Virus record (IMG/VR): IMGVR_UViG_3300045988_151198
Strand: one strand, 5' to 3'
Length of the DNA: 64,000 nt
DNA from: a virus
The translations under genes and the position numbers were made by a program. Below, piece after piece: positions 13,921 through 50,559 of the stretch. Under the pieces are notes generated by a model, which was not told where the DNA came from, did no database searches, and saw only the letters and a list, made by a program, of their open reading frames with translations. How positions within the stretch are numbered: the first letter of the stretch is position 1; the number at the start of each line of letters is the position of its first letter.

Positions 13921-13946
13921 TAAACTAAAATTATATGGAGATAAAT

Positions 13947-24098: not shown

Positions 24099-24501
24099 TA
24101 CGCCATTAAAGCTTGTCCAAAGAGCGGAAACAAAACTTTTTCAACTTTTCATAAAGTCTCAAGAAGTAAAAAAATTTTTTGGTGAAAATATTTTCCAAGG
24201 AATCGTCGAAGCGAACACTGTAGCTAATACTAAACGCTTCGTTCTAATTCATCGAATTTCCGGAGATCCCTTGGACAAAACACTTTCTGATAGGGGAGAC
24301 TTATTGCGGTCAGTCCGTGTACAAGTTGATGTAATGAGCACCAACTATGCAGACGCCACAGAGGGTTCCGAAATTATCAGAAGTTTATCGGAAACGGAGT
24401 TTCCATCTTGCGTAGATGGAGATCATTATGGAACAACGCAGATTGGGCAAAATATTTGGCATATTCAATCTGTAGATTTTATCCTTGAAGAAGGAGCTTA
24501 A
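24091..24501 (+). CDS. tail completion / neck protein (putative)
   Basis: Start set to MLNTPLKL after the AGGAGA RBS; overlaps the upstream gene by 8 nt. Confidence 0.35.
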   Translation: MLNTPLKLVQRAETKLFQLFIKSQEVKKFFGENIFQGIVEANTVANTKRFVLIHRISGDPLDKTLSDRGDLLRSVRVQVDVMSTNYADATEGSEIIRSLSETEFPSCVDGDHYGTTQIGQNIWHIQSVDFILEEGA

Positions 24502-24503
24502 CA

Positions 24504-25307
24504 ATGGCTGTATCTTATCAAGCCAGAACGAGTAAAGGACTGAAATTCTTCCGTGGTACGGGGTCTTCTTTCGCTACGGCAGTATGGGAACACGTTCCGG
24601 GAATTTCGGCTTGGAATGGACCTAACATTTCCAAACCTACAATTACCGTTACGACTACTCAATCGGAAGCCGTAGAAAAAATCTCGGATATTCCTGATAA
24701 CGGCACTATTACTTTTAACGGTTATGTTGATGACCTTTGTGAAACGCATCAGAATTTGCTGACGCAAGATTTGTACTCTCGTGATTACCGTCCGTGTAAG
24801 GTAGAATTCCCCACGGGTACGGTTATGTACTTCATGGGCCAGCTTACCGGGATGCCGCTTTCTGGTGGTGTCGGTGCTGCGAATACGACTACGTACACTT
24901 TCGATGTTTCCAGCAAGATTGAATGGGTTTTTGGTGGTAAACGCGCAACCTTGAGTTGGGATAGCACACTCGCTGGCACTGAATCGTCTGGCGCTGTGAC
25001 TGGTAAAGTTACTGTAACGCTTATTCCGGGTAAGGAATCTACTGCTAAATTTACTACGAGCGTTGAAAACGCCGCAAACTTTACCGCAAATACGCATTAT
25101 AAATTGGCTAATGTTCCGGCGGGACTTGTTGGTGCTCTTAAGAAAGTTAGTGATACGGTTGCTGAATTGTCTTTCACTGGAGCCGCTACTAATAAGGCAG
25201 ATGTTTTTAATATCGCCTTGACTTTTATGGATAGCGCTTTTGCTAATGCTGATGCGAATCTCATTTCCGGCAGTACGAAGACCGATATTGCTATCACTTT
25301 CGTTTAA
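24504..25307 (+). CDS. major tail (tube) protein
   Basis: 267 aa, upstream of the G/GT chaperones and the tape measure. The N-terminus MAVSYQARTSKGLKFFRGTG is paralogous to ORF 43580. Confidence 0.6.
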   Translation: MAVSYQARTSKGLKFFRGTGSSFATAVWEHVPGISAWNGPNISKPTITVTTTQSEAVEKISDIPDNGTITFNGYVDDLCETHQNLLTQDLYSRDYRPCKVEFPTGTVMYFMGQLTGMPLSGGVGAANTTTYTFDVSSKIEWVFGGKRATLSWDSTLAGTESSGAVTGKVTVTLIPGKESTAKFTTSVENAANFTANTHYKLANVPAGLVGALKKVSDTVAELSFTGAATNKADVFNIALTFMDSAFANADANLISGSTKTDIAITFV

Positions 25308-25328
25308 TCTATAACAACCAAATAGAAA

Positions 25329-25352
25329 GAGAGGGAGAATCGTCTCCCTCTC
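25329..25352 (+). terminator. GC-rich hairpin GAGAGGGAG...CTCCCTCTC after the major tail gene (possible attenuator)
   Basis: A 9-bp perfect stem with no U-tract. Commonly seen after highly expressed tail tube genes. Confidence 0.35.
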
Positions 25353-25379
25353 GAAAAAAAAATTCAGGAGAGGAATCAT

Positions 25380-25751
25380 ATGGCTATTCTTACTATTGAA
25401 AAATTTGCGGAGCTGCGTAATAGTCTTACTGTTGTGAAAGACAAGTTTTATATCCCCGTATGGGACGCGGAAGTTTACATGCGTAGACTGAGCGCCGGGG
25501 AAGCAATGAAAATTTATAGCCGCGCCGAGAAAGTTCAAGACGAGGATAAAAAGGTCGAAGAGTATAACTTTGCGATGTACCGCATGGTTATTGCTTGCCT
25601 TGTCGATGAGAACGGCAACCAGATGCTTACTGAAAATGACATCAATTGGCTTTTGAGTCAGGATGTTCAGGTTGTTACTGCCTTGGTTGAAGCCGCATCA
25701 AAGATGAATACTATCAATGAAAAGGCTCAGGAAGAGGCAGAAAAAAACTAA
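25380..25751 (+). CDS. tail assembly chaperone (G-like)
   Basis: 123 aa directly upstream of the tape measure. Ends at a slippery A AAA AAC site. Confidence 0.6.
   Translation: MAILTIEKFAELRNSLTVVKDKFYIPVWDAEVYMRRLSAGEAMKIYSRAEKVQDEDKKVEEYNFAMYRMVIACLVDENGNQMLTENDINWLLSQDVQVVTALVEAASKMNTINEKAQEEAEKN
25741..25747 (+). promoter_or_regulatory. programmed -1 ribosomal frameshift slippery heptamer A AAA AAC
   Basis: The heptamer lies in the zero frame 3 codons before the G stop. The -1 frame continues open to 25990 (KKLTTGWLWMFAYSLARDL...). Confidence 0.55.
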
Positions 25752-31878: not shown

Positions 31879-32298
31879 ATGAAAATGAGAGACAAGTTTT
31901 CAAAATACATAGGAATCCCTTTTGTGGATCACGGAGTATCGAAAGAAGGTTGCGACTGTTATGGCCTTGTGCTTCTCGTGTATAAAGAGGAGCTTGGCAT
32001 TGATCTTCCGTGGCTCGGGGATTCCTATTCTCATGCGTATCGTAGAAAAGACGTAAACTCCACGGTAAAAAAGAACATTGATCTTGGTTGCTATATAGAC
32101 GTTACGAATGAGCCTCGCAAACCTCTTGATATTATTATTTTTAGGACTGGAGGTCTTGAAACACATATCGGACTTTGGGTTGAGGATGGATGGCTTTTGG
32201 ACATACTTGAAGGGGCGCATAGTACGATTCGTAGGTACGATACGTCTGAATGGAAAAACAGAATTACGAGAATTTTGAGGCACGTAGATGCGCGGTAA
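31879..32298 (+). CDS. tail-associated NlpC/P60-family peptidase (lambda K-like)
   Basis: GIPFVDHGVSKEGCDCYGLVLLVY contains the catalytic Cys, and a downstream His is present, as in phage NlpC/P60 tail proteins. Confidence 0.65.
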   Translation: MKMRDKFSKYIGIPFVDHGVSKEGCDCYGLVLLVYKEELGIDLPWLGDSYSHAYRRKDVNSTVKKNIDLGCYIDVTNEPRKPLDIIIFRTGGLETHIGLWVEDGWLLDILEGAHSTIRRYDTSEWKNRITRILRHVDAR

Positions 32299-35200
32299 AG
32301 CAATGAAAAAGCGAGCCTCTCGTAAAAGAGGGGAAATCACAGTTCTTGGTCGGCATTGGGCAAGTTCGTCTCGTGTCTCGCTCACAGTCCAAGAAGGTCA
32401 ATCCCTTGAAAACATCATCACAGACTCCGTAAAAATTCTTCGGGCTAACCAAGCTATCACTCCCGCATATGCCGAATATCTAAAGAAGCATTGTGTTTGC
32501 CGTGTGGATTTTATCAATATCCCTAAAGAAAAATGGGCCGTCACTTATCCTGCGGATGGTCAAAGAGTCGAGTTTTTCATTAAGCCCGGTAAAGGCGGCG
32601 GTAAAAATCCTTTTGCTACAATCCTTAACATTGTTGTAGCTGTCGCTGCTATCGCAGTGCCCGTACTTGCTCCGGCTTCATGGGGGTTGATGACAGCGGC
32701 GGGAGCCTTGACTTGGACTGGTGCCGCAGTAAGTTTTGGTATCTTAACGGTTGGCTCACTCGCTGTCAATATGCTTTGCCCTCCTGCAACACCTAAACTT
32801 AGCGGACCTAAATCTTCCGAAAAAGAATCTCCTACCTATTCTATTTCCGGGGCAAGAAACGGAGCGAACCCATATGGTTTTGTTCCTCTTATCTTCGGAA
32901 GGAATAAGGTCACTCCTCCTTTGGCAGCGAAATCTTGGACGAATATTGAATCGGATAAAACCTATTTCAATATGTGCGTTATTTGGGGGCACCCAGATAT
33001 GTCCGTAAGAGATTTTAAAATTGGGGATACGCCTTTAGAAAACTTTAAAAATATTGACCACAGATTCCATCCTTCTACCACTGGTGAGGGGCTTGTCTAT
33101 TTTGGCAAATCCTTTAATGAAGAAACCGTGGGGACTTTAATCTCGAAAGAAGCTGGATATATTACTCGGACAATGGGAGAATGCGATACAATCAGCTTAG
33201 ACATCACATTCTCCAAAGGGCTGACTTCCATCAATGAGAAAAATGGAGATAACTATGATCGTACCGTTGAATTTGAAGCTGAATATAAATTAAAGAATGA
33301 TACGGTATGGAAAGGACTTGTCGGAGGGTCATTCCCTATTCGTGGGACATCTATCGAGCTTAAAAGAAAAACTGGCTTTTATTTAAACGCCGGAAAAAAC
33401 TCTATTGTCTATAGTGATTTTTCTGGTAATATCAATATGGCTGATGGAGAAACAGCTCCAGTTAATACCGTTCCATTAGCAAAAGTTATTCTTGTATCAA
33501 CTCCTCATTATGAATTTGATGATGATGGAAGACAGCGGGTAACATATACATATTCATATACTTGCGAAGACTTGCGGGTAAGTTCTGTATCCGGTGCCGC
33601 TCCGTATATTAATGAAGTAAAACATTATACGAAAAAATGCGGATATGGATTAGGTAGTCCTTATTGGAGTTATACTTGCGTCGAAGTTTATGATTATTCG
33701 ACTTATGAAATTGTCATTCCTGACCAATATGTGAATGGCATTAACAAATTTGCCATCTCTGGACAGCAATTAAAGCCCTTGACCCGTACCTATACTGTGA
33801 ATGTTCCTCACGGAGATTACGATGTTCGTATTCGAAGACTTACTGATGATAATTCAAATAAGTATATCTATGATGAAGCTACGTGGGCGACGAAAAGGGC
33901 TATTGTAAATCGTCAATCTTTTTCAACTCCTGTTCCCGTATGTGTTTCTGAATTGCGTATTCAGGCATCGGAACAGCTTTCTGGATACGTCGATAACTTT
34001 AATGCTATTTGCACGGCATTGATTCCAGACTTTAATACTAGCAATAATACGTGGGAATGGAGGGAGACGAGAAATCCTGCATCTGCTTATAGGTATGTAT
34101 TGACATCCCGTCATGCTTTAAATTCTCCTTATACGGAAGACAAGCTTGACGAACCAACGCTACGTGAGTTTCATAAGTATTGTACCCGAATGGGGTGGAC
34201 TTTCGATTTTGTTTGTGATACAGAAGAGAATCTGTGGTCACGTCTTACTCAGATCGCTGCGGCAGCGCGTGCTTCCGTAACCACAGAAATAGATGGAAAA
34301 TATGGTGTGGTGATTGACGATAAGAATAAAACTCCTGTGCAGCAATTCAACCAGCGTAATAGTTGGGGATTCAGCATGGAGAAACTTTTTCCTAACGTCC
34401 CTCATGCTCTTAGAATCAAATTTGTTAATAGTGAAAATAATTTCCTGCAATCGGAAGATTTCTGCTATGCGGACGGATTTGATAAAAACAATGCTACGGA
34501 TATTCAAGAAATCGACTTTCCCGGCATTACTACGTGGACAAATAACTGGAAGCAAGGAAGATATCATTTAGCATCACAACTTCTTCGTCCCCTAAGCGTT
34601 ACAATTAATGCTGACTGGGAGCACAGGATGTGTCATCGTGGAGACGTTATTGAAATTTTCCATGACGTTCTCATGAACACTTTCGGAGCGGCACGTGTTG
34701 TAGGATTGATTTATCGGGATACAGGTGGTACGGAATATATTATTTACGAAAATTCCGAAAGGCCCATTGATACTCCCGCCGTAGGTGTCGTTCTTGATGA
34801 TTCCATTGTCTTTAGCGAACGTGATGTTATTTACGGTATTGCAATTAGAAATCCATATGGAAAAACTGTTACTTATCAAATTCAACCACAATTTGGAGAG
34901 GAACATTCCCATATTTATTTTACTTTTGCAATAACATATGCTACTACTCCCTATATTGGAGATTTAGCTAGCGTATCATTAATGGGTGAAGCGAATGATA
35001 AATACCTTGTAACTCAGATTGCGCCCGCCGAAAATTCTTCGGCGGAAATTAAAGCAATTCCGTATTCTCCCGAAGTTCTTGATGCGGATAAAGGAGAAAT
35101 TCCTCCTTGGAATCCTCCTATTATCATTGACAAGCTGCCTACTTATACTATTCCCAATCCTACTATTATACAGATAATTTCCGATGAATCCATGCTCGTT

Positions 35201-37531
35201 AAGATTGGGCAGAATATCATTCCTCAGGTTGGTATCTGGTTTAAGGTTGGAGATGGAACCTCGTTAGATTGTGTGGTTTACGCCCGTGCAAAGAAAACGC
35301 AAGAAGCAGCTTGGGGCAATACCGTTCGAACTTCCGTATCCGAAGGATATGTCGTCATTTCGAATATGGAGTCTGGTGAGCTATATGACTTGTCTATCCA
35401 AGTTACCGATCCTGTACGGGGAATTAGCAGTGATTGGATAACTCAAACCGGATATTTCGTTATTGGAAAAACCGCGCCGCCTCCTGATGTGGACGGCGTT
35501 ACCGCTGAGCTTCTTCCTCCGTCCGGGGTAAAAATCAGTTGGAATCCCGTAGCCACTCTTGATATAGATTACTATGCTGTTCAAGGGGACATTACAGGGA
35601 AAACGATTGACACGAGTATCATACTTCCCGTCCCAAATAAATTCGGCACATTGAATATGACAGTTAGCGCAGTGGATACGCTTGGAAATTTTTCCTTGCA
35701 ACCTGCCCCCGTTTCTGTTACTATTCAAAAACCTAAAAACCCTGTCATTAAAACGGAAGTCACTATCGATGGCCTTAAATTGAGTTGGACAGATTGTACA
35801 ACTTCTTGGCCTATCAAGAATTATGAAGTTCATGATAAATATATGTCAAGAACGGAATTTTCTAATGTGACTTCAATATATGTGTCGCCAAGACCTGTGG
35901 GTAATTATAAATTCACAGTGAAAGCTATAGACATTTTTGGAAATGAATCTGGTACTGTTCCTGCATTTATTGAAGTGGATCTTCTCGGGAGGGTCCAGCC
36001 GACAGCAAGAATTGATGGCGCTGATATCCTGTTAGAATGGCCTATTGTATCGTCGGCGTTTCCGATAGATGAATTCGAAATCGTTGAAGGGGATTTCACT
36101 CCGGTAGGTAGAGCGAAAGTCAACTATTTCCGAGTTCCTGCGGGAGCTGTCGGGTTTCATGAATGGAAAATCCGAGCACGAGATATCGTCGGTAACTATG
36201 GAGATTGGGGTGAAGTTTCTATCGAGATTAAACCTGCTGGTGCCCCAACTGTAAAAGCGACAATTCAAGAAGATAAAATCCTTATTTCTTGGGTAGCGCC
36301 TTCAACAATCAATTTACCAATAACTGAATACGAGATAGAAAATAGTACAACAGGAGAATCTTTCGGAAGGATTAATGCGACACAGATAGTCGTACCTCCT
36401 GAAAAAACTGGAAACCACATTTTCAGGGTTCGTAGTTGGGATACTGGAGGAAATGCTGGAGCATGGGGAGAAACGAGTTTCCGAATCGAAGCTCCCGGCA
36501 GAGTTTATATAACTCCTACCGTCATCGACAATAACGCGCTTCTTGTTTGGACTGAACCTTCCACGGTATTCTTTCCAATTCATCATTATGAGGTACTTCG
36601 TGGGGATGAATTGGAATACGCGGAACTTATTTTCAATGTCAACGCTTTGATTGTCAATATCTTTGAAGCTGTATCCGGTAATTATACATATTGGGTTGTT
36701 CCGGTAGACGTAGCAGGTAACAAAGGCACCGCAACTCCCATTACTTGCGTAATTTCTCAGCCTCCGGATTATGTTCTTTTCTATGATTGGGATTCCGTTT
36801 TCTCTGGAACACGCCATAATTTTGTTCTTGATGGCATTGGAGGGATGATTGGTCCTATCGTAGATGAGAATGAAACATGGACGCAGAATATTGCACGATT
36901 CGGTGGAACGACAGCGGACTCTACATGGAAAAACAAGGTGGATATTGCCGGACCTACTTGGATGGAACCAGCAGGTACAGAGGGGTGGTATCAAGAAGAA
37001 TTTGATTATGGACAAATCATGCAGTCCATCAGACTTGTGGTCACACCTACGGTTCAAATTCTTTCCGGCACGCCTTTGTATTATGTTAAAGTTGAATTTA
37101 AAGTGGATGTGAATGACCCGTGGGAATTAGCCGCAGAAAATGCTACGCAGGTGTTTTTACAGCGATTCCGGTATATCCGATTCACACTTGGAATGCTTCC
37201 GGACTCCACGGGACTTATCCGAGTGTCCGAATTGAACCTTAAATTCGACGTTAAAATTCGAAATGACTCTGGTGTCGCTTTGGCTGAGGCAAATACGAAC
37301 GGTCCAGAATGGCCCGGAAACGCAAATGATACTGGAAATCTGGTAAACTTTTCTATGCCATACCTCGATGTATGGGAAGTTACGGCTGCACCTGAAAGTG
37401 AAGATGCGGGATTGGTCGCCTTGGTTTCTTTCCAAGACATTCCTTCTCCCAAGTTTTTCAGAGTGTCTCTTTTCAATAATAAGGGCGAACGCACTACGGG
37501 GAACGTGGTGTGGAGAGCAGTAGGAATATAA
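32288..37531 (+). CDS. host specificity / central tail fibre protein (lambda J-like) with multiple fibronectin type III-like repeats
   Basis: 1747 aa directly after the K-like gene. The region around 35.4-36.8 kb encodes at least five repeats of about 90 aa with a W...P...Y.V.A.D..GN.S pattern (FN3-like). Confidence 0.75.
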   Translation: MRGKAMKKRASRKRGEITVLGRHWASSSRVSLTVQEGQSLENIITDSVKILRANQAITPAYAEYLKKHCVCRVDFINIPKEKWAVTYPADGQRVEFFIKPGKGGGKNPFATILNIVVAVAAIAVPVLAPASWGLMTAAGALTWTGAAVSFGILTVGSLAVNMLCPPATPKLSGPKSSEKESPTYSISGARNGANPYGFVPLIFGRNKVTPPLAAKSWTNIESDKTYFNMCVIWGHPDMSVRDFKIGDTPLENFKNIDHRFHPSTTGEGLVYFGKSFNEETVGTLISKEAGYITRTMGECDTISLDITFSKGLTSINEKNGDNYDRTVEFEAEYKLKNDTVWKGLVGGSFPIRGTSIELKRKTGFYLNAGKNSIVYSDFSGNINMADGETAPVNTVPLAKVILVSTPHYEFDDDGRQRVTYTYSYTCEDLRVSSVSGAAPYINEVKHYTKKCGYGLGSPYWSYTCVEVYDYSTYEIVIPDQYVNGINKFAISGQQLKPLTRTYTVNVPHGDYDVRIRRLTDDNSNKYIYDEATWATKRAIVNRQSFSTPVPVCVSELRIQASEQLSGYVDNFNAICTALIPDFNTSNNTWEWRETRNPASAYRYVLTSRHALNSPYTEDKLDEPTLREFHKYCTRMGWTFDFVCDTEENLWSRLTQIAAAARASVTTEIDGKYGVVIDDKNKTPVQQFNQRNSWGFSMEKLFPNVPHALRIKFVNSENNFLQSEDFCYADGFDKNNATDIQEIDFPGITTWTNNWKQGRYHLASQLLRPLSVTINADWEHRMCHRGDVIEIFHDVLMNTFGAARVVGLIYRDTGGTEYIIYENSERPIDTPAVGVVLDDSIVFSERDVIYGIAIRNPYGKTVTYQIQPQFGEEHSHIYFTFAITYATTPYIGDLASVSLMGEANDKYLVTQIAPAENSSAEIKAIPYSPEVLDADKGEIPPWNPPIIIDKLPTYTIPNPTIIQIISDESMLVKIGQNIIPQVGIWFKVGDGTSLDCVVYARAKKTQEAAWGNTVRTSVSEGYVVISNMESGELYDLSIQVTDPVRGISSDWITQTGYFVIGKTAPPPDVDGVTAELLPPSGVKISWNPVATLDIDYYAVQGDITGKTIDTSIILPVPNKFGTLNMTVSAVDTLGNFSLQPAPVSVTIQKPKNPVIKTEVTIDGLKLSWTDCTTSWPIKNYEVHDKYMSRTEFSNVTSIYVSPRPVGNYKFTVKAIDIFGNESGTVPAFIEVDLLGRVQPTARIDGADILLEWPIVSSAFPIDEFEIVEGDFTPVGRAKVNYFRVPAGAVGFHEWKIRARDIVGNYGDWGEVSIEIKPAGAPTVKATIQEDKILISWVAPSTINLPITEYEIENSTTGESFGRINATQIVVPPEKTGNHIFRVRSWDTGGNAGAWGETSFRIEAPGRVYITPTVIDNNALLVWTEPSTVFFPIHHYEVLRGDELEYAELIFNVNALIVNIFEAVSGNYTYWVVPVDVAGNKGTATPITCVISQPPDYVLFYDWDSVFSGTRHNFVLDGIGGMIGPIVDENETWTQNIARFGGTTADSTWKNKVDIAGPTWMEPAGTEGWYQEEFDYGQIMQSIRLVVTPTVQILSGTPLYYVKVEFKVDVNDPWELAAENATQVFLQRFRYIRFTLGMLPDSTGLIRVSELNLKFDVKIRNDSGVALAEANTNGPEWPGNANDTGNLVNFSMPYLDVWEVTAAPESEDAGLVALVSFQDIPSPKFFRVSLFNNKGERTTGNVVWRAVGI

Positions 37532-40593: not shown

Positions 40594-42168
40594 ATGGCAA
40601 ATCCTAATTTTTCCGCACCAGCAATATCCAATAAAATCGCATCGGATATTGATTCCATTCGAGAACTTGCAAAACTTATTGCGAGGCTGCGAGGGGATCT
40701 TGCTGACAATGCTCCGGACGGTACTATTATCTTCAATCAATCCGCAATGAATTTCCAGATGAAAAGCGGCTCGGTCTGGAATGCTTTGGATGGCGATACT
40801 GGCAAGTACGCTTTCAATGTCGATAAGCTTGATGGGTTTCATGCTAATGCGGGGATTATAGCCAATTCCATCGTGGTGCGGGATTCCAAGGGCGTGATTC
40901 CCGGAAACATCTCCGGGCGTGCCCCTAATGCTACACAAGCTGATAAGCTTACTACGGTTAACCCCATTGCGAAAGGGGGGACAGGAGCTTCTACTGCTGC
41001 ACAGGCTCGTGCTAATCTTGGTACGAATGACGTAGGTAATTTGACAGCAGGGGTTCTGCCTTTTAAACGTGGCGGTACTGGCAGGACTGATGGTAGCGCT
41101 CAGGATGTTCAAATAAATAGTAGTGGTGAGGGGATTAATGCCAATCTGACTACCGCTAAAGGATGCGGTCAGCTCGGATTATTGGCTCTTGGAAAAGGTA
41201 TTGGCACCGATGCTAATTTGTTCATTGCAAACGGAAATTTCTGGTTTAATAATGAGCACGCATTAACGAATTTTCCAATAAATAGTGTAGGTGGGATACT
41301 CACTGTTCGCGGCTATTATACATATGCGCGACAAGAATTCGTTAATTATAACAATACTGGCAGATATTGGCGATTAACTCAAAATTCAGGTTCAACGTGG
41401 ACCCCGTGGTATCGTGTCCCCGAAGGTTTGACAGATAATTACACCACAAATTCGTCTGTCGTTGCCGCATCCGCTAAAGCCTTGATGAATCTCAAATCTT
41501 ACGCGGATACGAAATTGCCTTTGGCTGGCGGGGCTATGACCGGAAGGATTAACGGATTGCGGGGGACTTATAATAGTTCAATCATTGCAAGATATAGTAC
41601 TTCCGCTTTAGAAATTAGAGAAAATGACGGTGTTGGTAATACGCAAACAGATATAGGATATGCTCCATCAATCGGCTTTCATTGGGCGAATATAGCTGCG
41701 GCACAGCTTGTTTTAAGAGCAGATGGGTCTTTCGCCTTCATTAAACAGGGCGGCGAAAGAAATTTTGTTGATTGTTGGGCCGCTCTTGCCGAGACTTCGC
41801 GGTATGTACGTAATTCAGGCGATCAAGATATGAGATTTTATTGGGATGGTCAAGCCGGGCAGCCGCAATGGTTATGGGGATCTAATGACGGCGTAAATAT
41901 AAAAGTGTGGAATCCTTCAAATTTCTCCGTAAACTATGCAAATAGAGCAGGTTCTGCTCCAGCAGATGGTGGGACATCATGGCAAACGGTAAATGTTCCA
42001 AATGTATGGTACGTCCCTTCCGGAGGGGTGACGGTGCCAGCGGGCGGAACATTCCTGTTTGTTTACATGCCTTGGGATTCCCACTATCTTAGCCATTCCT
42101 ATTTGCCTGGAGGCCACCAGATAGGAAATCGGATTTGCGATGGTGGCCTCCTAATCCGAGTTTCATAA
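40594..42168 (+). CDS. tail fibre protein
   Basis: Contains the classic fibre motifs ...DKLDGFHANAG... and ...IAKGGTGASTAAQARANLG.../...KRGGTGRTDGSAQ. Confidence 0.65.
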   Translation: MANPNFSAPAISNKIASDIDSIRELAKLIARLRGDLADNAPDGTIIFNQSAMNFQMKSGSVWNALDGDTGKYAFNVDKLDGFHANAGIIANSIVVRDSKGVIPGNISGRAPNATQADKLTTVNPIAKGGTGASTAAQARANLGTNDVGNLTAGVLPFKRGGTGRTDGSAQDVQINSSGEGINANLTTAKGCGQLGLLALGKGIGTDANLFIANGNFWFNNEHALTNFPINSVGGILTVRGYYTYARQEFVNYNNTGRYWRLTQNSGSTWTPWYRVPEGLTDNYTTNSSVVAASAKALMNLKSYADTKLPLAGGAMTGRINGLRGTYNSSIIARYSTSALEIRENDGVGNTQTDIGYAPSIGFHWANIAAAQLVLRADGSFAFIKQGGERNFVDCWAALAETSRYVRNSGDQDMRFYWDGQAGQPQWLWGSNDGVNIKVWNPSNFSVNYANRAGSAPADGGTSWQTVNVPNVWYVPSGGVTVPAGGTFLFVYMPWDSHYLSHSYLPGGHQIGNRICDGGLLIRVS

Positions 42169-42189
42169 TAAAAAAAAAGGATAATACAT

Positions 42190-42750
42190 ATGGATTACGG
42201 AGATATTATTCATAGAATTGATGACGATTCTTTTGTCATTATTAAAAACGGGCTTCCTTACCACGTCCCCAAGAATATAGACGAGTATTCGGAGGAATGG
42301 AAAAGCGTTTCGGAATATGCAAAAAATAACCCAGAAAAAGTTTCTGTAGAAGAAGGAAAAGCGATTACGCTTGAAAATCTTAAAGAATCAAAAAAAAGCT
42401 CTATAGACTATGAAACTCGAAATAGAATCTATGATGGATTTAATTATGTGATAAATGGATTAGAATATCATTTTTCTTATGGTGCAACTGATCAACAAAA
42501 TTATGCAGATGATGCTAATTTAATTTTATATCAAAAATATTCTGGAATAGAGCCAATTTCGATCATATCTAGGACAGGATATTCCATCCCAGATAACAAT
42601 CCAGTTTCTTTTCAATTTAAAGGCGATGCGTTCCTTGACCTTTATTATAATGGAGCTTTAGCTCATAAGAATAAAGCATTGAAAGAAGGTAAAGAGCGTA
42701 AACTTAAAGTCGAAAAAGCCTCTACAAAAGAAGAATTGGACACTATTTAA
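42190..42750 (+). CDS. hypothetical protein (possible tail fibre assembly or chaperone)
   Basis: 186 aa, AT-rich, directly after the fibre gene. Confidence 0.4.
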   Translation: MDYGDIIHRIDDDSFVIIKNGLPYHVPKNIDEYSEEWKSVSEYAKNNPEKVSVEEGKAITLENLKESKKSSIDYETRNRIYDGFNYVINGLEYHFSYGATDQQNYADDANLILYQKYSGIEPISIISRTGYSIPDNNPVSFQFKGDAFLDLYYNGALAHKNKALKEGKERKLKVEKASTKEELDTI

Positions 42751-42959: not shown

Positions 42960-43319
42960 ATGAGCGACACACATCAAACAGTTACGGTAGGCGGTGGGGA
43001 GAAAACGGACGGAATTTCTAGTGCTATTCTTGCATTTGCTAAAGATATTCCGAGGGAAGTTTCAGATCATGTATCTACGCTCTTTTGGAGGATGCTGACG
43101 TTGCTTCTTATCGTCATGTTCCTTCTTACCGGGGGAGCTTCCTATTATTTTTCATCAAGAATCAATGATATGGAAGCTCAAATCTCTGAGAAAAACAGAG
43201 CTATCGAATCAATTAATCGTAGACATAGAGATCTGGTTAGGGCTATCGGCAAGGGAGATATTCAGTCTCTTTCTAAAGCGAATATTAAATCAGATTCAAA
43301 TCATGAAATTTCAGAATAA
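42960..43319 (+). CDS. single-pass membrane protein with a coiled-coil C-terminus (holin- or spanin-like candidate)
   Basis: TM segment LTLLLIVMFLLTGGASYYF followed by a charged coiled coil. Confidence 0.35.
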   Translation: MSDTHQTVTVGGGEKTDGISSAILAFAKDIPREVSDHVSTLFWRMLTLLLIVMFLLTGGASYYFSSRINDMEAQISEKNRAIESINRRHRDLVRAIGKGDIQSLSKANIKSDSNHEISE

Positions 43320-43337
43320 AAGTGGCAATGGTAAACA

Positions 43338-43580
43338 ATGGCTACATCCGACGCTAATATTTGTCCCGTTTGCAAAGAAAGGGCTTTTTATCAAACAACC
43401 GTAGTAGCTTTTGAAGATACTCATTTACATCGATTAGGAATGGAAGAGAGATCGACCTATACTTGTGCCGTATGCGGAGCGACTTTTCTGAGAAAGGTAA
43501 AACCTGAGTTTTATCAAGTCAAAACTCAAACGCCTCCAGCTTGGCTAGTAAGGAAATTAAGCAAGAAGGAGGCTAAATAA
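43338..43580 (+). CDS. zinc-ribbon protein (CPVC...CAVC)
   Basis: 80 aa with two CxxC pairs. Confidence 0.4.
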   Translation: MATSDANICPVCKERAFYQTTVVAFEDTHLHRLGMEERSTYTCAVCGATFLRKVKPEFYQVKTQTPPAWLVRKLSKKEAK

Positions 43581-44860
43581 TGGCATACGAACCTCGTACA
43601 AGCAAAGGTCTTCGTTTTTTCCGGGGAACAGGGACAGACCTTGCAACGACATCATGGCAGATAATTAATGGTATTTCGGATTGGGCGGCCCCAACACCCA
43701 CCATCCAATCTATCGATATGACGACGATTAAGGATGAAGCCACTGTATACGCTCCCGGAATCCGAGAGAGCGGAAGCTCATCCATGACCCTGTATTTTGA
43801 TGATTTAAACACGATTCACCAGAATCTTTTGATTGCCGATAGCAAGTCTGCGGTCAACATCCCTTATCGCATCGATTTTACTGAGACAGGGACTAGCGTA
43901 GCCTTCATGGGGCACCCAACCTCTGTACCTGTTTCCGGTTCCGTAGGCTCCGCAAATAGCGCTGCGATTACATTCTATGTTTCCGGCGACCCTGAATGGT
44001 CTTTCGGTTCTGGAAGTAGCCCTGAGCTTGATCCTTCCCAATTTCCGGAATCCGTAAAAGAAAGATTCGTTATTGCTACCAATGAAGCTGCAATGCTTTC
44101 CTTGACAATCAAAAACGTACAAAATGGTGACTCTGTAATTGTCAAAGAGCCGAAGCCTCTTATGTACGCTGTGGTCGATGACGGCGCACTTGGTACAATG
44201 GCGGCTTTTTATGCTTATCAGGCTAAATCTGATTGGAGCCTTCTTTCTAGTATCCCTGCCACATTTAAGCCTTCTGCACATGCGGATGAAAGTGCGGCGT
44301 ATGGATTAGCAACAACAACTCTGTATGGTCATGCAAAAATCACGACAACTACTCCAAAAGCCCTCGGCGTAGCCAACGTAGGCTCGGAAGATGCGTTTGC
44401 TAGAGGCGACCATGTTCATCCAGCTCAAACAGAAGTGTCCGGCAATGCTGCAACGGCTACGCAATGGAAAACTCCGAGAACATTCTATATCTCTGGGGTA
44501 TATAAAGCGGAAGCTATTGTTAATGGGACGAAAAATATAGATTTCGCTCTGGAAAAGAATATCCAAAGTTTGGCTTCCGGTACGGGCACCGTTTCAGTTG
44601 AATTAGTCCCTTCCGTAACCCACATCGTTACAGTAGACCGCGCCTTTACTGTAACGATCCCCGCAGGGTTACAATCCGATAAATTTTATGAGTTTCATGC
44701 CATCCTTAAAGCCGCGAATACCTCTGCTGCATTAACGATTTCCGAACCTATTCAATGGGAAAACAATACGCCCCCCTCACTCACTGAAAATAAAGTTACT
44801 GAAATTAAAATACAGATCTATGGTAATATAAAAATCGGAACATACCGTATATTCGGATAA
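43580..44860 (+). CDS. major-tail-protein paralog with a fibre-like C-terminal extension
   Basis: The first 150 aa or so (MAYEPRTSKGLRFFRGTGTD...IHQNLL...) align with the tail tube protein 24504..25307. The C-terminal 250 aa carry the fibre-like motif AYGLATTTLYGHAKITTTTPKALGVANVGSEDAFARGDHVHP. Confidence 0.55.
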   Translation: MAYEPRTSKGLRFFRGTGTDLATTSWQIINGISDWAAPTPTIQSIDMTTIKDEATVYAPGIRESGSSSMTLYFDDLNTIHQNLLIADSKSAVNIPYRIDFTETGTSVAFMGHPTSVPVSGSVGSANSAAITFYVSGDPEWSFGSGSSPELDPSQFPESVKERFVIATNEAAMLSLTIKNVQNGDSVIVKEPKPLMYAVVDDGALGTMAAFYAYQAKSDWSLLSSIPATFKPSAHADESAAYGLATTTLYGHAKITTTTPKALGVANVGSEDAFARGDHVHPAQTEVSGNAATATQWKTPRTFYISGVYKAEAIVNGTKNIDFALEKNIQSLASGTGTVSVELVPSVTHIVTVDRAFTVTIPAGLQSDKFYEFHAILKAANTSAALTISEPIQWENNTPPSLTENKVTEIKIQIYGNIKIGTYRIFG

Positions 44861-44960
44861 TCTTAAATAACTCCGTCGACGGTCGTGGACGCATTTCAAT
44901 ATTTAAAACTTCGCGCTATATTGCCCCCATGATGTTAATCATCACTTTGGGGGCTTTATT

Positions 44961-45476
44961 ATGTCTAACGCAACTACAGGATTTAATCAATCCGCATATT
45001 CTTCTCCTACGCAACGCTCTTCTATGCCTATGAACACATACAGCTACGCGATGGTAAGTTCTGATGGCGTTATTTACACATGGGATGTCAATGCCGGAAA
45101 CCAACCTATCGGGGTAGCCACGGAGATTCACGAGAAGCTTAAAGCGCAGCTTATACAAGCGATTGATAAGGCAGAGTCTTATTATAAGATGCTCGTAGAA
45201 AACGGAATTATAAAGCCTGAACCTACGCAAGAAGAAGTTCTTAACAACGCTTTGAAGGAATTGCAGGAATCCCGTGCGCAGAATGCTAAACTGGCTGAGA
45301 TGATTGCTGGTCTTACCGATAAGATTCAAGTCATTTCATCGAATATCGCTTCAACTAAGTCCGTCAATGAGGAAACTCAGGACACTCCGAAATTCGTAGA
45401 TGACGTGATTAAGGAAGATGCAAAGAATCCTCCAGTTAAAATGGAACAAGGCAACAATAGAGGTAATAAACGATGA
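44961..45476 (+). CDS. hypothetical protein
   Basis: 171 aa. Confidence 0.45.
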   Translation: MSNATTGFNQSAYSSPTQRSSMPMNTYSYAMVSSDGVIYTWDVNAGNQPIGVATEIHEKLKAQLIQAIDKAESYYKMLVENGIIKPEPTQEEVLNNALKELQESRAQNAKLAEMIAGLTDKIQVISSNIASTKSVNEETQDTPKFVDDVIKEDAKNPPVKMEQGNNRGNKR

Positions 45477-45841
45477 ACGTACAAAAGATCATGAGCATTG
45501 TAAATACCTTGTCCGGAGGAAACTCAAAGGTAATTGACGCCGCGCAAAAGGCTATCTCCGAATCTCGTAATTACCAACCAACTCTTGAGGGCGCACTTCA
45601 AGTTGCCCAGAAGTTTGGTATTGATGCTCAAATTCTTGCGGGGATGAAGAAACATTTGGACAATCCCGCCATTAAGATGGGACTGAACTCCATAGCTCCC
45701 GGAAGCATCGACAAAATTACCGAGATGGGGAATCAGCTTGAGGCCGCGCTTCGTCAAAGAGGTCCAGCCCCTACTTCAAACGCTCCTAATCCCGGAAACG
45801 ACGAATTGGCTAAACGCCTTCAAAAACTTGGAATAAAATAA
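45473..45841 (+). CDS. hypothetical protein
   Basis: 122 aa; overlaps the upstream stop (ATGA). Confidence 0.45.
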   Translation: MNVQKIMSIVNTLSGGNSKVIDAAQKAISESRNYQPTLEGALQVAQKFGIDAQILAGMKKHLDNPAIKMGLNSIAPGSIDKITEMGNQLEAALRQRGPAPTSNAPNPGNDELAKRLQKLGIK

Positions 45842-45921
45842 TACCTTCGGTGATTCGAGAAGAAATTCGCAGTTTCTTCTCTTCACATATACCCAAAAAC
45901 TTTTTTTATGGAGAATGACTT

Positions 45922-46491
45922 ATGGAATCTGAACGCGAATCTTCCATGAACTTCGGCTGGATCTTTATCGTGCTGCTCCTGTTCTTCGGGATCTTCGGCG
46001 GTGGCTTCGGCTGCGGTGGTAACGGCCTGTTCGGTCGTGGTAATTGCGGTGGTGCCGCTGCTGTTGCTGGTACCGAGCTTGCTGATCTGGTCGCGCTGCG
46101 CTCCGTGCTTGGTCACAAGACCATGACGGATAACTGCCAGACCGACCGCGATGTTCTGGAACTCAAGTGCAACATGACTGCGCAGAACGCTGTGCTGACG
46201 CAGCAGCTTGAAACTGCCTTCCGCACGATTATCTCTAATCAGGACGCTGGTTTCTCGGCTCTGCGTACTCAGATGCTCGAAGACCAGATTCGTACCCGCG
46301 ACATGACCCTGATGGCTCAGAACAACGAAATTCAGGGGCTCAAGGCGCAGATGTACAATGACGGTCGTTTCAACGCTCTGGAACGCTCCATTGAAGCTGG
46401 TTTCTGCCAGACTGTCAAGCGTCCGCCCTTCTTCCCCGTGGGTTGCTCCCCGTGCGTGAATCCTTGTGGTTGCGGTGGCGTCACCGCCTAA
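45922..46491 (+). CDS. membrane-anchored Gly/Cys-rich protein with a YjcZ-like N-terminus and central coiled coil
   Basis: NFGWIFIVLLLFFGIFGGGFGCGGNGLFGRGNCGG resembles the sporulation YjcZ-family peptide motif. The C-terminus is CSPCVNPCGCGG. Local GC is about 57% against a genome background of about 41%. Confidence 0.5.
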   Translation: MESERESSMNFGWIFIVLLLFFGIFGGGFGCGGNGLFGRGNCGGAAAVAGTELADLVALRSVLGHKTMTDNCQTDRDVLELKCNMTAQNAVLTQQLETAFRTIISNQDAGFSALRTQMLEDQIRTRDMTLMAQNNEIQGLKAQMYNDGRFNALERSIEAGFCQTVKRPPFFPVGCSPCVNPCGCGGVTA

Positions 46492-48275: not shown

Positions 48276-48423
48276 TCAGAAATTCTCCCTACCTCCTTCC
48301 CATCCCTCCCTTAAAGGCGTCTATCCGGACGCCTTTTTCTTTTCTTGACAAAAATATAGAATGAAGATATACTTCAAAGATATATTGAAAATATCATTTT
48401 ATCAGATAAGGAGAGGAGTTTCA

Positions 48424-50559
48424 ATGGCTAATGTAAAACCCATAACGACTAAACAATTCAATCAAAACAAAAAGCATATCACCGACATCCATTGGTACGC
48501 CGACAATGTTCTTAACGGAAATATTCAGGTCTGTAAATACATTAGAGCATTGTGCAAAAACTTTAAAGATGATCTTGCCAATAAAGACCTCGATTTTTAT
48601 TTTTCGGAAGAATCGTCTATCCGAGTAATTTGTTTTATTGAAAATATGGTGCATGTCAAGGGCGTTCTTACTGGAAAAAGATTAAAGCTTGAGCCTTGGC
48701 AGAAATTCTTCGTTGGAAACATCTTTGGGTGGCTGGATAAGAAAAACAATCTCCGCAGGTACAGGGAGGCCGCCCTTATCGTCCCCCGAAAAGCTGGCAA
48801 GGCTTTAGCTGTAAGCACTCCAATCCCTACTCCCGAGGGTTGGGTCACGATGAATGATTTAAAGCCCGGAGATGCCGTTTATGGGCCAAATTCGGATATA
48901 CGGAGAGTAGTAGCCGTAACGGAAGTGATGTACGGAAGGCCGTGCTATGAAATTTCTTTCAGTGATGGTTCCGCTATTACTGCCGACGCGGAGCATCTTT
49001 GGAAAATCGACGGTAAGAATATCGTAACCTCCGAAAGTCTGCATCAAATCCTGTCCCATAATGGCAGAAAGCCCAAAGTGTGGGTAGCTCCGAATATAAA
49101 AAGGCATGATGGCGAGACGGTGCCTGTGGTAAGATTTATTACGGATTGTAAACCTGTGGAAAGCGTTCCGGTGAAGTGTATACAGGTTGACAATGAAGAT
49201 GGAATGTATCTTTGCGGGAAAACGTATATTCCGACTCACAATAGCAGCCTTGCAGCGGCTATTGGTCACTATATGCTTGTTGGTGAAAAAGAAAAAGGTT
49301 CAGAAGTATACTGTGGCGCGACCACAGAAGTTCAAGCATTTGTCCTGTTCAACATCGCTCGGGATATGATTGTTGCCAATAAAGCATTTGAAGAAGCATT
49401 TGGTCTGACTTATACTAAAGAATCGATTCATGCGCAATCAACGCTTTCTACGTTCAAACCTATTATCGGAAGCCCGAAGGACGGTAGTAATCCTCAATGC
49501 GCTATTGTTGACGAGTATCACGAGCATCCTTCCGACGCGCTGTATGACTCGTTGAAGCTCGGTATGGGCGCAAGACAGCATCCTCTCTTGCTTGTTACTA
49601 CCACCGCAGGGACGAACATTAAAGGCCCGTGCTATCGTTATGTGGAGCAAGGCAGGAAGGTCGTATTGGGAAAAGCAAAGAACGACCGACTATTTTACAT
49701 GGAATTCACCATTGACGATACGGATAAATGGGAAGATTTTTCATGTTGGATTAAGGCCAGCCCGAACTTTGGAGTTTCCGTATCCGAAGAGTTCCTGCGC
49801 GAGCAATACGAAATAGCCAAATCATCACAGTACAAGCGTTCATCCATTCTTACCAAAATGCTGAATGTTTGGAACAATGAATCTGTGGGGTGGATTGACT
49901 TTCCTAAATGGCTTAATTGTACTGACAGAAATCTAAAGATGGAAGATTTTGAAGGCGAGAAATGCTGGATTGGCATTGACCTAGCCTCTAAAGTCGACTT
50001 AACAGCAATGGTTGCCGTCTTTAAGCGTGACGGTAAGTTCTATGTTTTCGGAAAATACTATCTTCCTTCCGATACTGTAGATAGGCCGGAGAATGACCAT
50101 TATCGTGGCTGGAGGGATGAAGGCTGGCTGACCGTAACGCAAGGGGCTCGAACAGATTATCACGCGCTAGAGGAGGACTTGCAAAATTGGGCTGATAAAT
50201 ATGCGATTCAGGAAGTAGCATATGACCCTAGAGAAGCCGAATATCTTATGCAGAATATCCGGGAATGGGCGGCATTTGAATGTATTGAATTCACACAGTC
50301 ATCCGCTACTTTCTCCGAGCCGATGAAAGAGTTTGAAGCTGCGTATCTTAATGGGGAACTTTTCCACCAGAATGACCCTATCCTCAATTTCGCAGCAGGG
50401 AATGTAGTCCTGAAATCCACAACGAACAAACTTGTTTACATGACCAAAACGGCGAATGAAAATAAAATCGACCCGATGGTCGCTATGATTATGGCAATCG
50501 CTAGAGCAATGGAAGATAAAGAAGAAGAGGCGTCAGATCCGTTTATTATGTTCCTTTAA
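48424..50559 (+). CDS. terminase large subunit (Terminase_1-like) interrupted in the Walker A loop by a mini-intein
   Basis: Start set to the ATG at 48424 after the AGGAGAGGAG RBS. Removing residues 148-294 of the ORF restores IVPRKAGK|SSLAAAIGHYMLVG, a canonical PRKxGKS/T P-loop plus the ALY-like segment. Downstream nuclease-domain acidic residues are present. Confidence 0.85.
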   Translation: MANVKPITTKQFNQNKKHITDIHWYADNVLNGNIQVCKYIRALCKNFKDDLANKDLDFYFSEESSIRVICFIENMVHVKGVLTGKRLKLEPWQKFFVGNIFGWLDKKNNLRRYREAALIVPRKAGKALAVSTPIPTPEGWVTMNDLKPGDAVYGPNSDIRRVVAVTEVMYGRPCYEISFSDGSAITADAEHLWKIDGKNIVTSESLHQILSHNGRKPKVWVAPNIKRHDGETVPVVRFITDCKPVESVPVKCIQVDNEDGMYLCGKTYIPTHNSSLAAAIGHYMLVGEKEKGSEVYCGATTEVQAFVLFNIARDMIVANKAFEEAFGLTYTKESIHAQSTLSTFKPIIGSPKDGSNPQCAIVDEYHEHPSDALYDSLKLGMGARQHPLLLVTTTAGTNIKGPCYRYVEQGRKVVLGKAKNDRLFYMEFTIDDTDKWEDFSCWIKASPNFGVSVSEEFLREQYEIAKSSQYKRSSILTKMLNVWNNESVGWIDFPKWLNCTDRNLKMEDFEGEKCWIGIDLASKVDLTAMVAVFKRDGKFYVFGKYYLPSDTVDRPENDHYRGWRDEGWLTVTQGARTDYHALEEDLQNWADKYAIQEVAYDPREAEYLMQNIREWAAFECIEFTQSSATFSEPMKEFEAAYLNGELFHQNDPILNFAAGNVVLKSTTNKLVYMTKTANENKIDPMVAMIMAIARAMEDKEEEASDPFIMFL
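48802..49242 (+). mobile_element. mini-intein (147 aa, no homing endonuclease domain) in the terminase P-loop; class 3-like (Ala1, W-C-T motif)
   Basis: Block A ALAVSTPIPTPEGWVTMNDL; block B ...ITADAEHLW; block F/G VKCIQVDNEDGMYLCGKTYIPTHN followed by the +1 Ser. Excising it restores the Walker A motif. Confidence 0.65.

Follow-up and report, generated by a model that had tools for sequence, protein, structure and literature searches.

The 64,000-nucleotide (nt) stretch of DNA under virus record IMGVR_UViG_3300045988_151198, hereafter the window, is a siphophage genome segment in which an open reading frame (ORF) at position 43580 encodes a 426-amino-acid (aa) protein, a paralogue of the phage's own tail tube protein fused to a tail fibre cassette. 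Genes are referred to by position throughout. In gene 43580, a tube domain is followed by a Gly/Ser/Pro-rich linker, two fibre modules (A and B), and a C-terminal domain of its own kind (module C) (Table 1). The gene is positioned 3' of the fibre genes, 19.1 kb from the canonical tube gene 24504 and 12.6 kb past the end of the tape-measure protein (TMP) gene. A first-pass annotation, made from the letters of the window, had described a second paralogue of the major tail protein with a C-terminal domain of tail-fibre type fused to it, encoded downstream of the canonical tube gene and after the fibres. That description proved correct in its paralogy, its position, and the fibre-like nature of the C-terminus, but not in a motif said to be shared with fibre gene 40594.

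Table 1. Features of gene 43580 and its surroundings (positions in the window)
Feature	Coordinates	Strand	Basis or remark
Gene 43580, 426-aa tube-paralogue/fibre fusion	43580..44860, including stop	+	ORF list, ATG start
Shine-Dalgarno sequence of 43580	43566..43572	+	AAGGAGG, 7 nt 5' of ATG
Tube domain, aa 1-148	43580..44023	+	Paralogy to 24504, PF16460, phrog_158, gpV-like fold
Gly/Ser/Pro-rich linker at tube domain/cassette junction, aa 143-156, GSGSSPELDPSQFP	44006..44047	+	Read from sequence
Fibre module A, small domain, aa 149-232	44024..44275	+	Ends W..(K)P..F.P
Fibre module B, aa 233-345	44276..44614	+	GDHVHP (HxH) and SGNAxTAxxxxTxR shaft motif
Orphan C-terminal domain (module C), aa 346-426	44615..44857	+	Predicted all-beta, presumed ligand-binding tip
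Presence/absence cassette relative to sister lineage	44024..44868	+	Gene in L035/L004 stops at Pro148 equivalent
80-aa CxxC...CxxC ORF	43338..43580	+	Stop overlaps ATG of 43580 (TAATG)
171-aa ORF, right flank of cassette, conserved	44961..45476	+	Homologue directly after 148-aa short allele in L035
Canonical major tail (tube) protein, 267 aa, source paralogue	24504..25307	+	Between tail completion and TAC/TMP genes; phrog_158

Residues 1-143 of the 43580 protein aligned with residues 3-144 of the 24504 protein at 44% identity with a single gap (BLASTP, E = 7e-35), far beyond chance, and the resemblance first noticed over roughly 150 N-terminal residues therefore kept its significance in a formal pairwise alignment. 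Using phmmer, the two proteins matched at 107 bits (E = 1.2e-25, scaled to 1.84 billion sequences). The 43580 protein also scored 30.3 bits against PF16460 (lambda-like tail tube protein), above the cut-off of 28.4 bits, and both paralogues were assigned to phrog_158, 'major tail protein' (43580, aa 7-141, E = 1.5e-13; 24504, E = 4.4e-17). It is 24504 that holds the place of a major tube subunit gene, from tail completion to TAC/TMP, and 43580 does not. Structure prediction, which the first-pass annotation had proposed as a check, agreed with the alignment. In the AlphaFold2 (AF2) model of full-length 43580, with a mean predicted local distance difference test score (pLDDT) of 52.5, the tube core reached 70 to 79 and showed strands and a helix at aa 78-88. 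Best Foldseek matches of this core in the PDB were lambda gpV structures (8iyd, 8iyk, 8k36, 7t4f, and 7t2e; probability 1.0, E = 2e-4 to 9e-4), with TM-scores kept modest by poorly modelled loops. The predicted core has the beta-sandwich, flanking helix, and long hairpin of the tube fold.

Divergence between the paralogues was centred on aa 36-70, at 23% identity versus 49 to 60% elsewhere; the N-terminal arm was 60% identical and the core 49 to 55%. This segment is predicted to form a long loop or hairpin (pLDDT 30 to 45), and such loops carry ring-to-ring contacts in T5 (PMC10038345) and JBD30, which suggests an altered stacking specificity. The canonical tube protein additionally has its own C-terminal decoration of ~120 aa. 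In a scan of 1.84 billion representative proteins no tube protein, the short allele described below aside, reached 73 bits against 43580, compared with 107 bits for the phage's own tube protein, which indicates intragenomic duplication. The two genes also resemble each other in their ribosome-binding regions. An old duplication within this genome, preceding the split from the lineage represented by contig L035, would be the simplest account of the tube domain.

Sequence searches of the PDB, made with the full protein and with a tube-domain profile, returned only the CROP repeats of Clostridioides difficile toxin, which we judged to be chance similarity inflated by repeats. These matches to CROP or cell-wall-binding repeats covered aa 6-52 (window 43595-43735) and the equivalent part of 24504 (E = 3e-5 with the profile). 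In both paralogues the matching stretch is the N-terminal arm and first strands, SKGLRFFRGTG..ATT.WQ.I.GIS, with a likeness to beta-hairpin repeats. BLAST matches beginning at aa 95-119 of 43580 were likewise set aside as extensions through the Gly/Ser-rich segment and not tube homology. Antisense ORFs lie opposite both tube genes, at 24498-25538 (346 aa) and 43805-44281 (158 aa), each on the minus strand, and are probably non-coding by-products of codon composition.

Downstream of the tube domain, the protein is built of fibre modules. Full-length 43580 was searched against 5.8 billion proteins with a word index and against the 1.84 billion representatives with a full HMMER scan (1391 hits at E ≤ 1e-3). 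Leaving aside one protein with the tube domain only and the near-identical orthologues, only aa ~146-345 were matched in either search. Module A, which domain mapping placed at aa 146-232, was present in 44 of 213 collected fibre proteins, often as repeats; its profile matched no Pfam family and resembled PDB 9d93, 'tail collar fibers gp4' (E = 7e-4). Module B, mapped to aa ~228-345, was far more widespread (207 of the 213, usually repeated). Within it, GDHVHP (nt 44405-44422) is invariant, including H278, H280, and neighbouring residues, and a SGNAxTAxKLxTxRTI...FDGSxNI stretch lies 3' of it. Profile comparison matched module B to the trimeric stalk of phage L Dec (6e3c, E = 1.8e-10) and to the PhiM1 tail fibre gp47 (8vbx, E = 1.6e-7), placing it among the shaft modules of homotrimeric HxH/beta-helix fibres. 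Judged from these homologues, the 43580 cassette is probably trimeric as well. In the AF2 monomer, pLDDT fell below 50 over the linker region (aa 143-151) and again over aa 158-251.

The C-terminal fibre motif first pointed out in 43580 (aa 250-281, nt 44327-44422) falls within module B, the module carried by 207 of the 213 proteins. Its supposed counterpart in fibre gene 40594 was not recovered: the best BLASTP match between the two proteins had an E value of 0.13 and fell in a different region, the module B profile scored E = 3.7 on 40594 versus 1e-44 on 43580, and only 'ISGrapNATQADKLTT' in 40594 resembles 'SGNAxTAxKLxT'.

Module C is an orphan, with no homologues outside the clade of 43580; only P0001 and P0002 matched it among the 213 proteins. 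Its predicted beta strands were modelled at pLDDT 54 to 64, and a single-sequence AF2 prediction of aa 296-426 (pLDDT 32.5) was discarded. One further candidate, P0079, aligned with aa 146-416 of 43580 and was rejected when the C-terminal domain alone gave E values of 0.6 or worse. A chimeric query (aa 144-232 joined to aa 323-426) returned zero matches and missed close homologues too. Among 100 module-bearing proteins scanned against Pfam, all phage-related families were of fibre type, namely PTR, Phage_fiber_2, head fibre, tail-collar fibre, Collar, Gp10_C, the S74 chaperone, and tail tip domain; other matches were single, weak, and to unrelated families. A tube-protein domain was found in none of these 100 proteins, and none of 210 collected module-bearing proteins showed any resemblance to aa 1-100 of 43580. 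At the junction of modules A and B, window 44249-44323 (aa 224-248) is a mosaic patch with two alleles, SIPATFKPSAHADESAAYGLATTTL and GKPDAFKPINHAYVGTGYGVSSTTQ, and both forms are spread over otherwise similar 43580 genes, which suggests recombination between variants.

A sister lineage carries the same tube paralogue without the cassette. A search with aa 1-150 of 43580 returned a single protein, P0068, and in the sister lineage (P0068, P0214, and P0215; contigs L004 and L035) the paralogue is 81% identical over aa 1-148. The genes upstream are the same as at 43580, and the 80-aa CxxC ORF is kept upstream of the short allele in L004. A stop codon follows directly after the equivalent of Pro148, where homology to 43580 ends. 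In L035, ~83 nt of unrelated sequence come next, after which homology to the window resumes at 44860: L035 positions 1582-1927 correspond to window 44860-45205 at 83% identity, reaching the homologue of ORF 44961. Since an allele with the tube domain only exists, the fibre cassette appears from these alignments as a precise, in-frame presence/absence module, joined through the Gly/Ser/Pro-rich linker, and the second tube domain as the conserved element of the locus. The possibility of a module-swapped adhesin, one of several roles raised at first reading, thereby gained direct support. The comparison of related phages proposed alongside it showed the second copy to be kept in relatives and to consist of the tube domain alone in L004 and L035.

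The long form is itself well conserved. Intact 426-aa ORFs were found in three ENA/Logan, eight IMG/VR, and seven ENA gut-metagenome contigs from several studies (L001-L003, L005-L012, and L023-L029), at 93 to 99% identity including the tip, and the 90% cluster of the protein has 254 members, one of them named, merely as 'MAG TPA: tail tube protein'. In every sufficiently long related contig, the canonical tube gene lies ~19 kb upstream. Ratios of nonsynonymous to synonymous substitution rates (dN/dS; Nei-Gojobori, ten relatives) were 0.02 to 0.12 for the tube domain, the most constrained part, 0.05 to 0.25 for modules A and B, and 0.06 to 0.12 for module C, with dS among relatives of up to 0.9. 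Gene 43580 is therefore genuine and subject to purifying selection. The conservation data refute both an assembly chimera and a decaying pseudogene left by duplication, for which only the odd architecture and odd gene position could speak: the same ORF recurs in more than 20 independently assembled contigs of several studies, and dN/dS stays at 0.02 to 0.25 across all three parts of the gene while dS reaches 0.9.

Conservation of the tip also argues against a strain-specific receptor-binding protein. Close relatives differ at the main fibre locus (window 40594-42750; L001 7046-9169; L002 7034-9130). There, the 524-aa fibre of the window and the 509-aa and 553-aa versions of the relatives are 71 to 75% identical over the first ~410 to 455 aa and have unrelated tips. 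The 186-aa chaperone has no BLAST match to the 140-aa PF16778 protein of L002, and the 657-aa tail protein beside the main fibre is 84 to 86% identical. With the main fibre tip and chaperone varying and the 43580 tip conserved, an accessory adhesin for a conserved ligand would fit.

No relatives were found among sequenced phage isolates in INPHARED, by megablast of 43000-46000 or by tblastn of 43580 and of the tube protein, and the clade is thus without relatives in that collection. A tube-domain alignment scan of 185,579 reference genomes found no prophage relatives, and so gave no clue to the host. When IMG/VR and metagenomes were scanned with the tube domain and with TerL, nothing beyond the same species-level clade was recovered.

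Gene order across the window begins with helicase, exonuclease, DNA polymerase, and NrdD genes. Head genes follow in the order portal (18142), protease, major capsid protein (20680), adaptor, and head completion protein, and then genes for a tail completion protein, the tube protein (24504), TAC, and TMP (26879). The TMP gene ends at 30979 and is followed by genes for gpM-like (30879), gpL-like (31339), gpK-like (NlpC/P60; 31879), and gpJ (32288; 1747 aa) proteins. After gpJ come the 657-aa tail protein, the 524-aa fibre (40594), a fibre chaperone (42190), three small ORFs, and 43580. On the 3' side of 43580 lie six ORFs without assigned function, a terminator and promoter, and TerL (48361). 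The lambda-type tail module is complete without 43580, which is therefore accessory. Between 43580 and 48313 there is no strong terminator, and the gene is apparently co-transcribed with the late tail and fibre genes.

A non-structural role is very improbable in this setting. It would make the 43580 protein an intracellular decoy or regulator, for instance one that titrates a tube-recognising defence sensor (DSR2) or controls tube polymerisation, with the fibre cassette incidental. Such a role would sit easily with a gene outside the core tail module, amid small ORFs without assigned function, with the existence of a tube-only allele, and with a weak Foldseek match to a complex of DSR2 and tube protein (8ygo_C, rank 39, E = 0.14). 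However, a cassette under purifying selection up to and including its tip (dN/dS 0.06 to 0.25) would be purposeless in a cytoplasmic decoy, and apparent co-transcription with late tail and fibre genes also speaks against this role. PADLOC or anti-defence evidence was not found either, though none was looked for.

Several further features of the window were recorded. The 80-aa ORF that overlaps the start of 43580 has two CxxC pairs, is zinc-ribbon-like and translationally coupled to 43580, and gave weak PHROG matches (HNH-like, E = 0.003). In window 48313-50559, the last plus-strand gene is TerL (732 aa), 30 kb 3' of the portal and beyond the tail and fibre genes; ahead of it lie a strong terminator (48313-48336) and, at 48345-48373, a promoter close to consensus. 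PHROG matches of TerL fall into two parts (aa 36-267 and aa 294-726), and in L001 a minus-strand HNH endonuclease gene lies ~1 kb beyond the end of the TerL gene. In the gpJ-like central fibre (window 32288-37531, 1747 aa), aa 94-209 match phrog_32 'tail assembly protein', suggesting that a gpI-like segment may be fused to J; no separate gpI gene was seen. The NrdD-type anaerobic ribonucleotide reductase at 13935-16130 (E = 2e-203) fits an anaerobic gut host. No tRNA genes were found in the window.

Taking these data together, we tentatively favour, short of calling it probable, a virion tail protein that forms a dedicated tube ring bearing fibres. The N-terminal domain, an old duplicate of the phage's own tube protein, would serve as the anchor, and six copies would assemble into a single dedicated ring, or a small number of them, aligned with the tail tube. 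Its site would most likely be the distal end, beside the gpM-like ring, as for T5 p140. A flexible linker of ~14 residues would let the six C-terminal cassettes gather as two short trimeric fibres, each cassette comprising module A, the HxH/beta-helix module B, and the orphan tip domain, and the two fibres might serve as an accessory adhesin that binds a conserved surface ligand. The specialised or decorating tube subunit suggested at the outset thus still offers the best functional reading, in this more particular form.

Its main rival places the same protein along the whole tail, as a minor tube subunit that co-polymerises with the major tail protein and displays a fibre-like adhesin decoration, in the manner of SPP1 gp17.1* or lactococcal TpeX and made from a separate gene. 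We consider this rather unlikely, though it draws on the translation signals of the locus. The AAGGAGG of 43580 is the second-longest Shine-Dalgarno match among 50 plus-strand genes and is as strong as or stronger than the AAGGAG of 24504, which stands in a similar context; among tail genes only these two have matches of at least 6 nt. Conservation of the N-terminal arm (60%) and core (49 to 55%) between the paralogues is in keeping with co-polymerisation, extended tube-protein variants that bind cell-surface carbohydrate provide a precedent (PMC8718954), and a swap of decorations is plausible given the ~120-aa C-terminal decoration of the canonical tube protein. Scattered copies would, however, seldom supply the three neighbours that trimeric modules need at low random occupancy, a bare 148-aa allele would bring no obvious benefit as an undecorated scattered subunit, and 44% identity with a diverged inter-ring loop argues for a distinct position in the lattice.

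The tube-like domain might also dock outside the tube lattice, at the tail-tip periphery or the neck, as a Dit-, collar-, or whisker-like component. The tube fold is found again in domains of Dit, hub, and terminator proteins, 43580 is located beyond the fibre genes and outside the tube/TMP cluster, and the side fibres of lambda and T5 are anchored by collars round the tube-Dit junction (PMC12617516, PMC10038345). We regard such docking as improbable, since 44% identity to a functional tube domain, including the N-terminal arm, implies that ring-forming geometry was kept, since known peripheral collars are built of Ig-like or beta-sheet domains and not tube folds, and since the Dit position is already taken by the gpM-like protein 30879.

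Three considerations led us to favour the dedicated ring. The bare short allele mirrors T5 p140, trimeric modules need three adjacent chains, and divergence is centred on aa 36-70, the inter-ring contact loop in other tubes. Other observations weigh against it. The phage is uncultured and without relatives among sequenced isolates, and the presence of the 43580 protein in virions is an inference. The AF2 model (mean pLDDT 52.5) is of low quality beyond the tube core, and the short allele is known from three contigs of less than 2 kb and two sequencing runs. The Shine-Dalgarno sequence, at least as strong as the one in front of the major tube gene, would suit an abundant subunit more than a ring of six copies. 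Gene 43580 lies outside the tail-tip cluster and the T5 p140 gene inside it. Finally, two trimers on a six-fold ring make an unusual symmetry.

Structural knowledge of how flexible phage tails carry accessory fibres comes from few models, the T5 collar and the Ur-lambda Stf collar among them. If the dedicated ring is real, a tube duplicate carrying a fibre covalently would be a simpler, distinct solution, and a natural example of a tube lattice accepting a heterologous ring. Cassette presence or absence behind a conserved tube domain marks a natural in-frame fusion point, which, if the protein is built into the tail tube, could guide how binding modules are displayed on tail tubes or tailocins. 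Human-gut metagenomes commonly contain this phage clade, as the 254 members of the 90% cluster attest, and the 43580 protein may therefore contribute to adsorption in the gut.

Known systems share some of these features. Damascus gp17 and gp19, from actinobacteriophage clusters, likewise represent a pair of major tail protein genes within a single siphophage genome (PMC11080557); unlike 24504 and 43580, they lie two positions apart within the tail module, and no fibre fusion is mentioned for them (PMC11080557). SPP1 gp17.1* is a frameshift-extended tube subunit with an FN3 extension, interspersed 1:3 in the tube (PMC8718954). As in 43580, a tube domain in gp17.1* and TpeX bears an extra C-terminal outer domain, thought to aid adsorption, and a shorter canonical tube protein is also made (PMC8718954). 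There, however, a programmed frameshift of the same gene yields identical tube domains with monomeric FN3, Ig, or CBM extensions, whereas 43580 is a separate gene with its own Shine-Dalgarno sequence and ATG, 44% identity to the tube protein, and a modular, probably trimeric fibre cassette; it is not a frameshift-extended major tail protein.

Dit and lambda gpM have a tube-fold N-terminal domain and form a hexameric ring that can be a platform for receptor-binding proteins, much as is proposed for the ring of 43580. Dit genes, in contrast, directly follow the TMP gene, a place where this phage has its gpM-like gene in a complete lambda-type tip set, and Dit proteins have diverged far from tube proteins and bear galectin, OB, or CBM domains. 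With its gene away from the TMP gene, a C-terminal part made of fibre modules, and no galectin-like domain, the Dit-like baseplate component entertained in the first-pass annotation is disfavoured.

In Ur-lambda, N-terminal domains belonging to Stf, the side fibre protein, form a 12-mer collar at the gpV/gpM junction, with linkers of ~10 residues joining the 12 collar domains to four trimeric shafts (PMC12617516). Stf, an accessory adhesin by which adsorption is sped up (PMC12617516), resembles the proposed arrangement of 43580 in its ring-forming N-terminal anchor, short flexible linker, trimeric fibre, and lambda-type (gpM/gpL/gpJ) tail. The two show no sequence relationship, and the Stf anchor is a small domain of a six-strand sheet and helix in a 12-mer collar. 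The anchor of 43580 has the fold and sequence of a tube protein and not of a Stf-type collar domain, and is proposed to form a 6-mer with two trimers within the stack.

The closest parallel is T5 p140, a duplicate of the tube protein lacking the Ig-like decoration, which makes up one ring, placed between Dit and the first ring of the tube, and bears the p132 collar onto which the side fibres (L-shaped fibres, pb1) are grafted (PMC10038345). Its authors noted that lambdoid phages must anchor side fibres otherwise than T5 (PMC10038345). Both p140 and the 43580 tube domain are duplicates of their own phage's tube protein, p140 is tied to side fibre attachment, as is proposed for 43580, and both are without the Ig-like decoration, a likeness that is exact for the 148-aa short allele of L004 and L035, the long allele having a fibre instead. 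They differ in that p140 is only 9% identical to pb6, compared with 44% between 43580 and 24504, and assembles as a trimer of double tube domains from a gene of the baseplate cluster, with 43580 lying after the fibre genes; its fibres are held non-covalently through a separate collar protein and that of 43580 is covalently fused. Held with more reserve than the dedicated ring itself, a third mode by which a lambda-type tail might bear side fibres can be envisaged, in which the anchor would be a genuine DNA-conduit tube ring and not a collar around it, trimerisation would pre-assemble half-rings of three tube domains, two of these would close into a two-fibre hexamer, and the sister tube-only allele would make a p140-like ring in a tail of lambdoid type. 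Specialised p140-like rings would then extend beyond the T5 family, with a covalent fibre gained or lost by cassette exchange. A separate tube paralogue with a covalent fibre cassette was not seen in 210 other module-bearing proteins, in the best 150 of the 1391 scan hits, or in the literature searched. Precedents exist for tube paralogues, for decorated tube subunits, and for side fibres anchored by a ring; 43580 unites in a single chain an anchor with the tube fold, a flexible linker, and a fibre that is probably trimeric, and the covalent fusion of paralogue and fibre is its new part.

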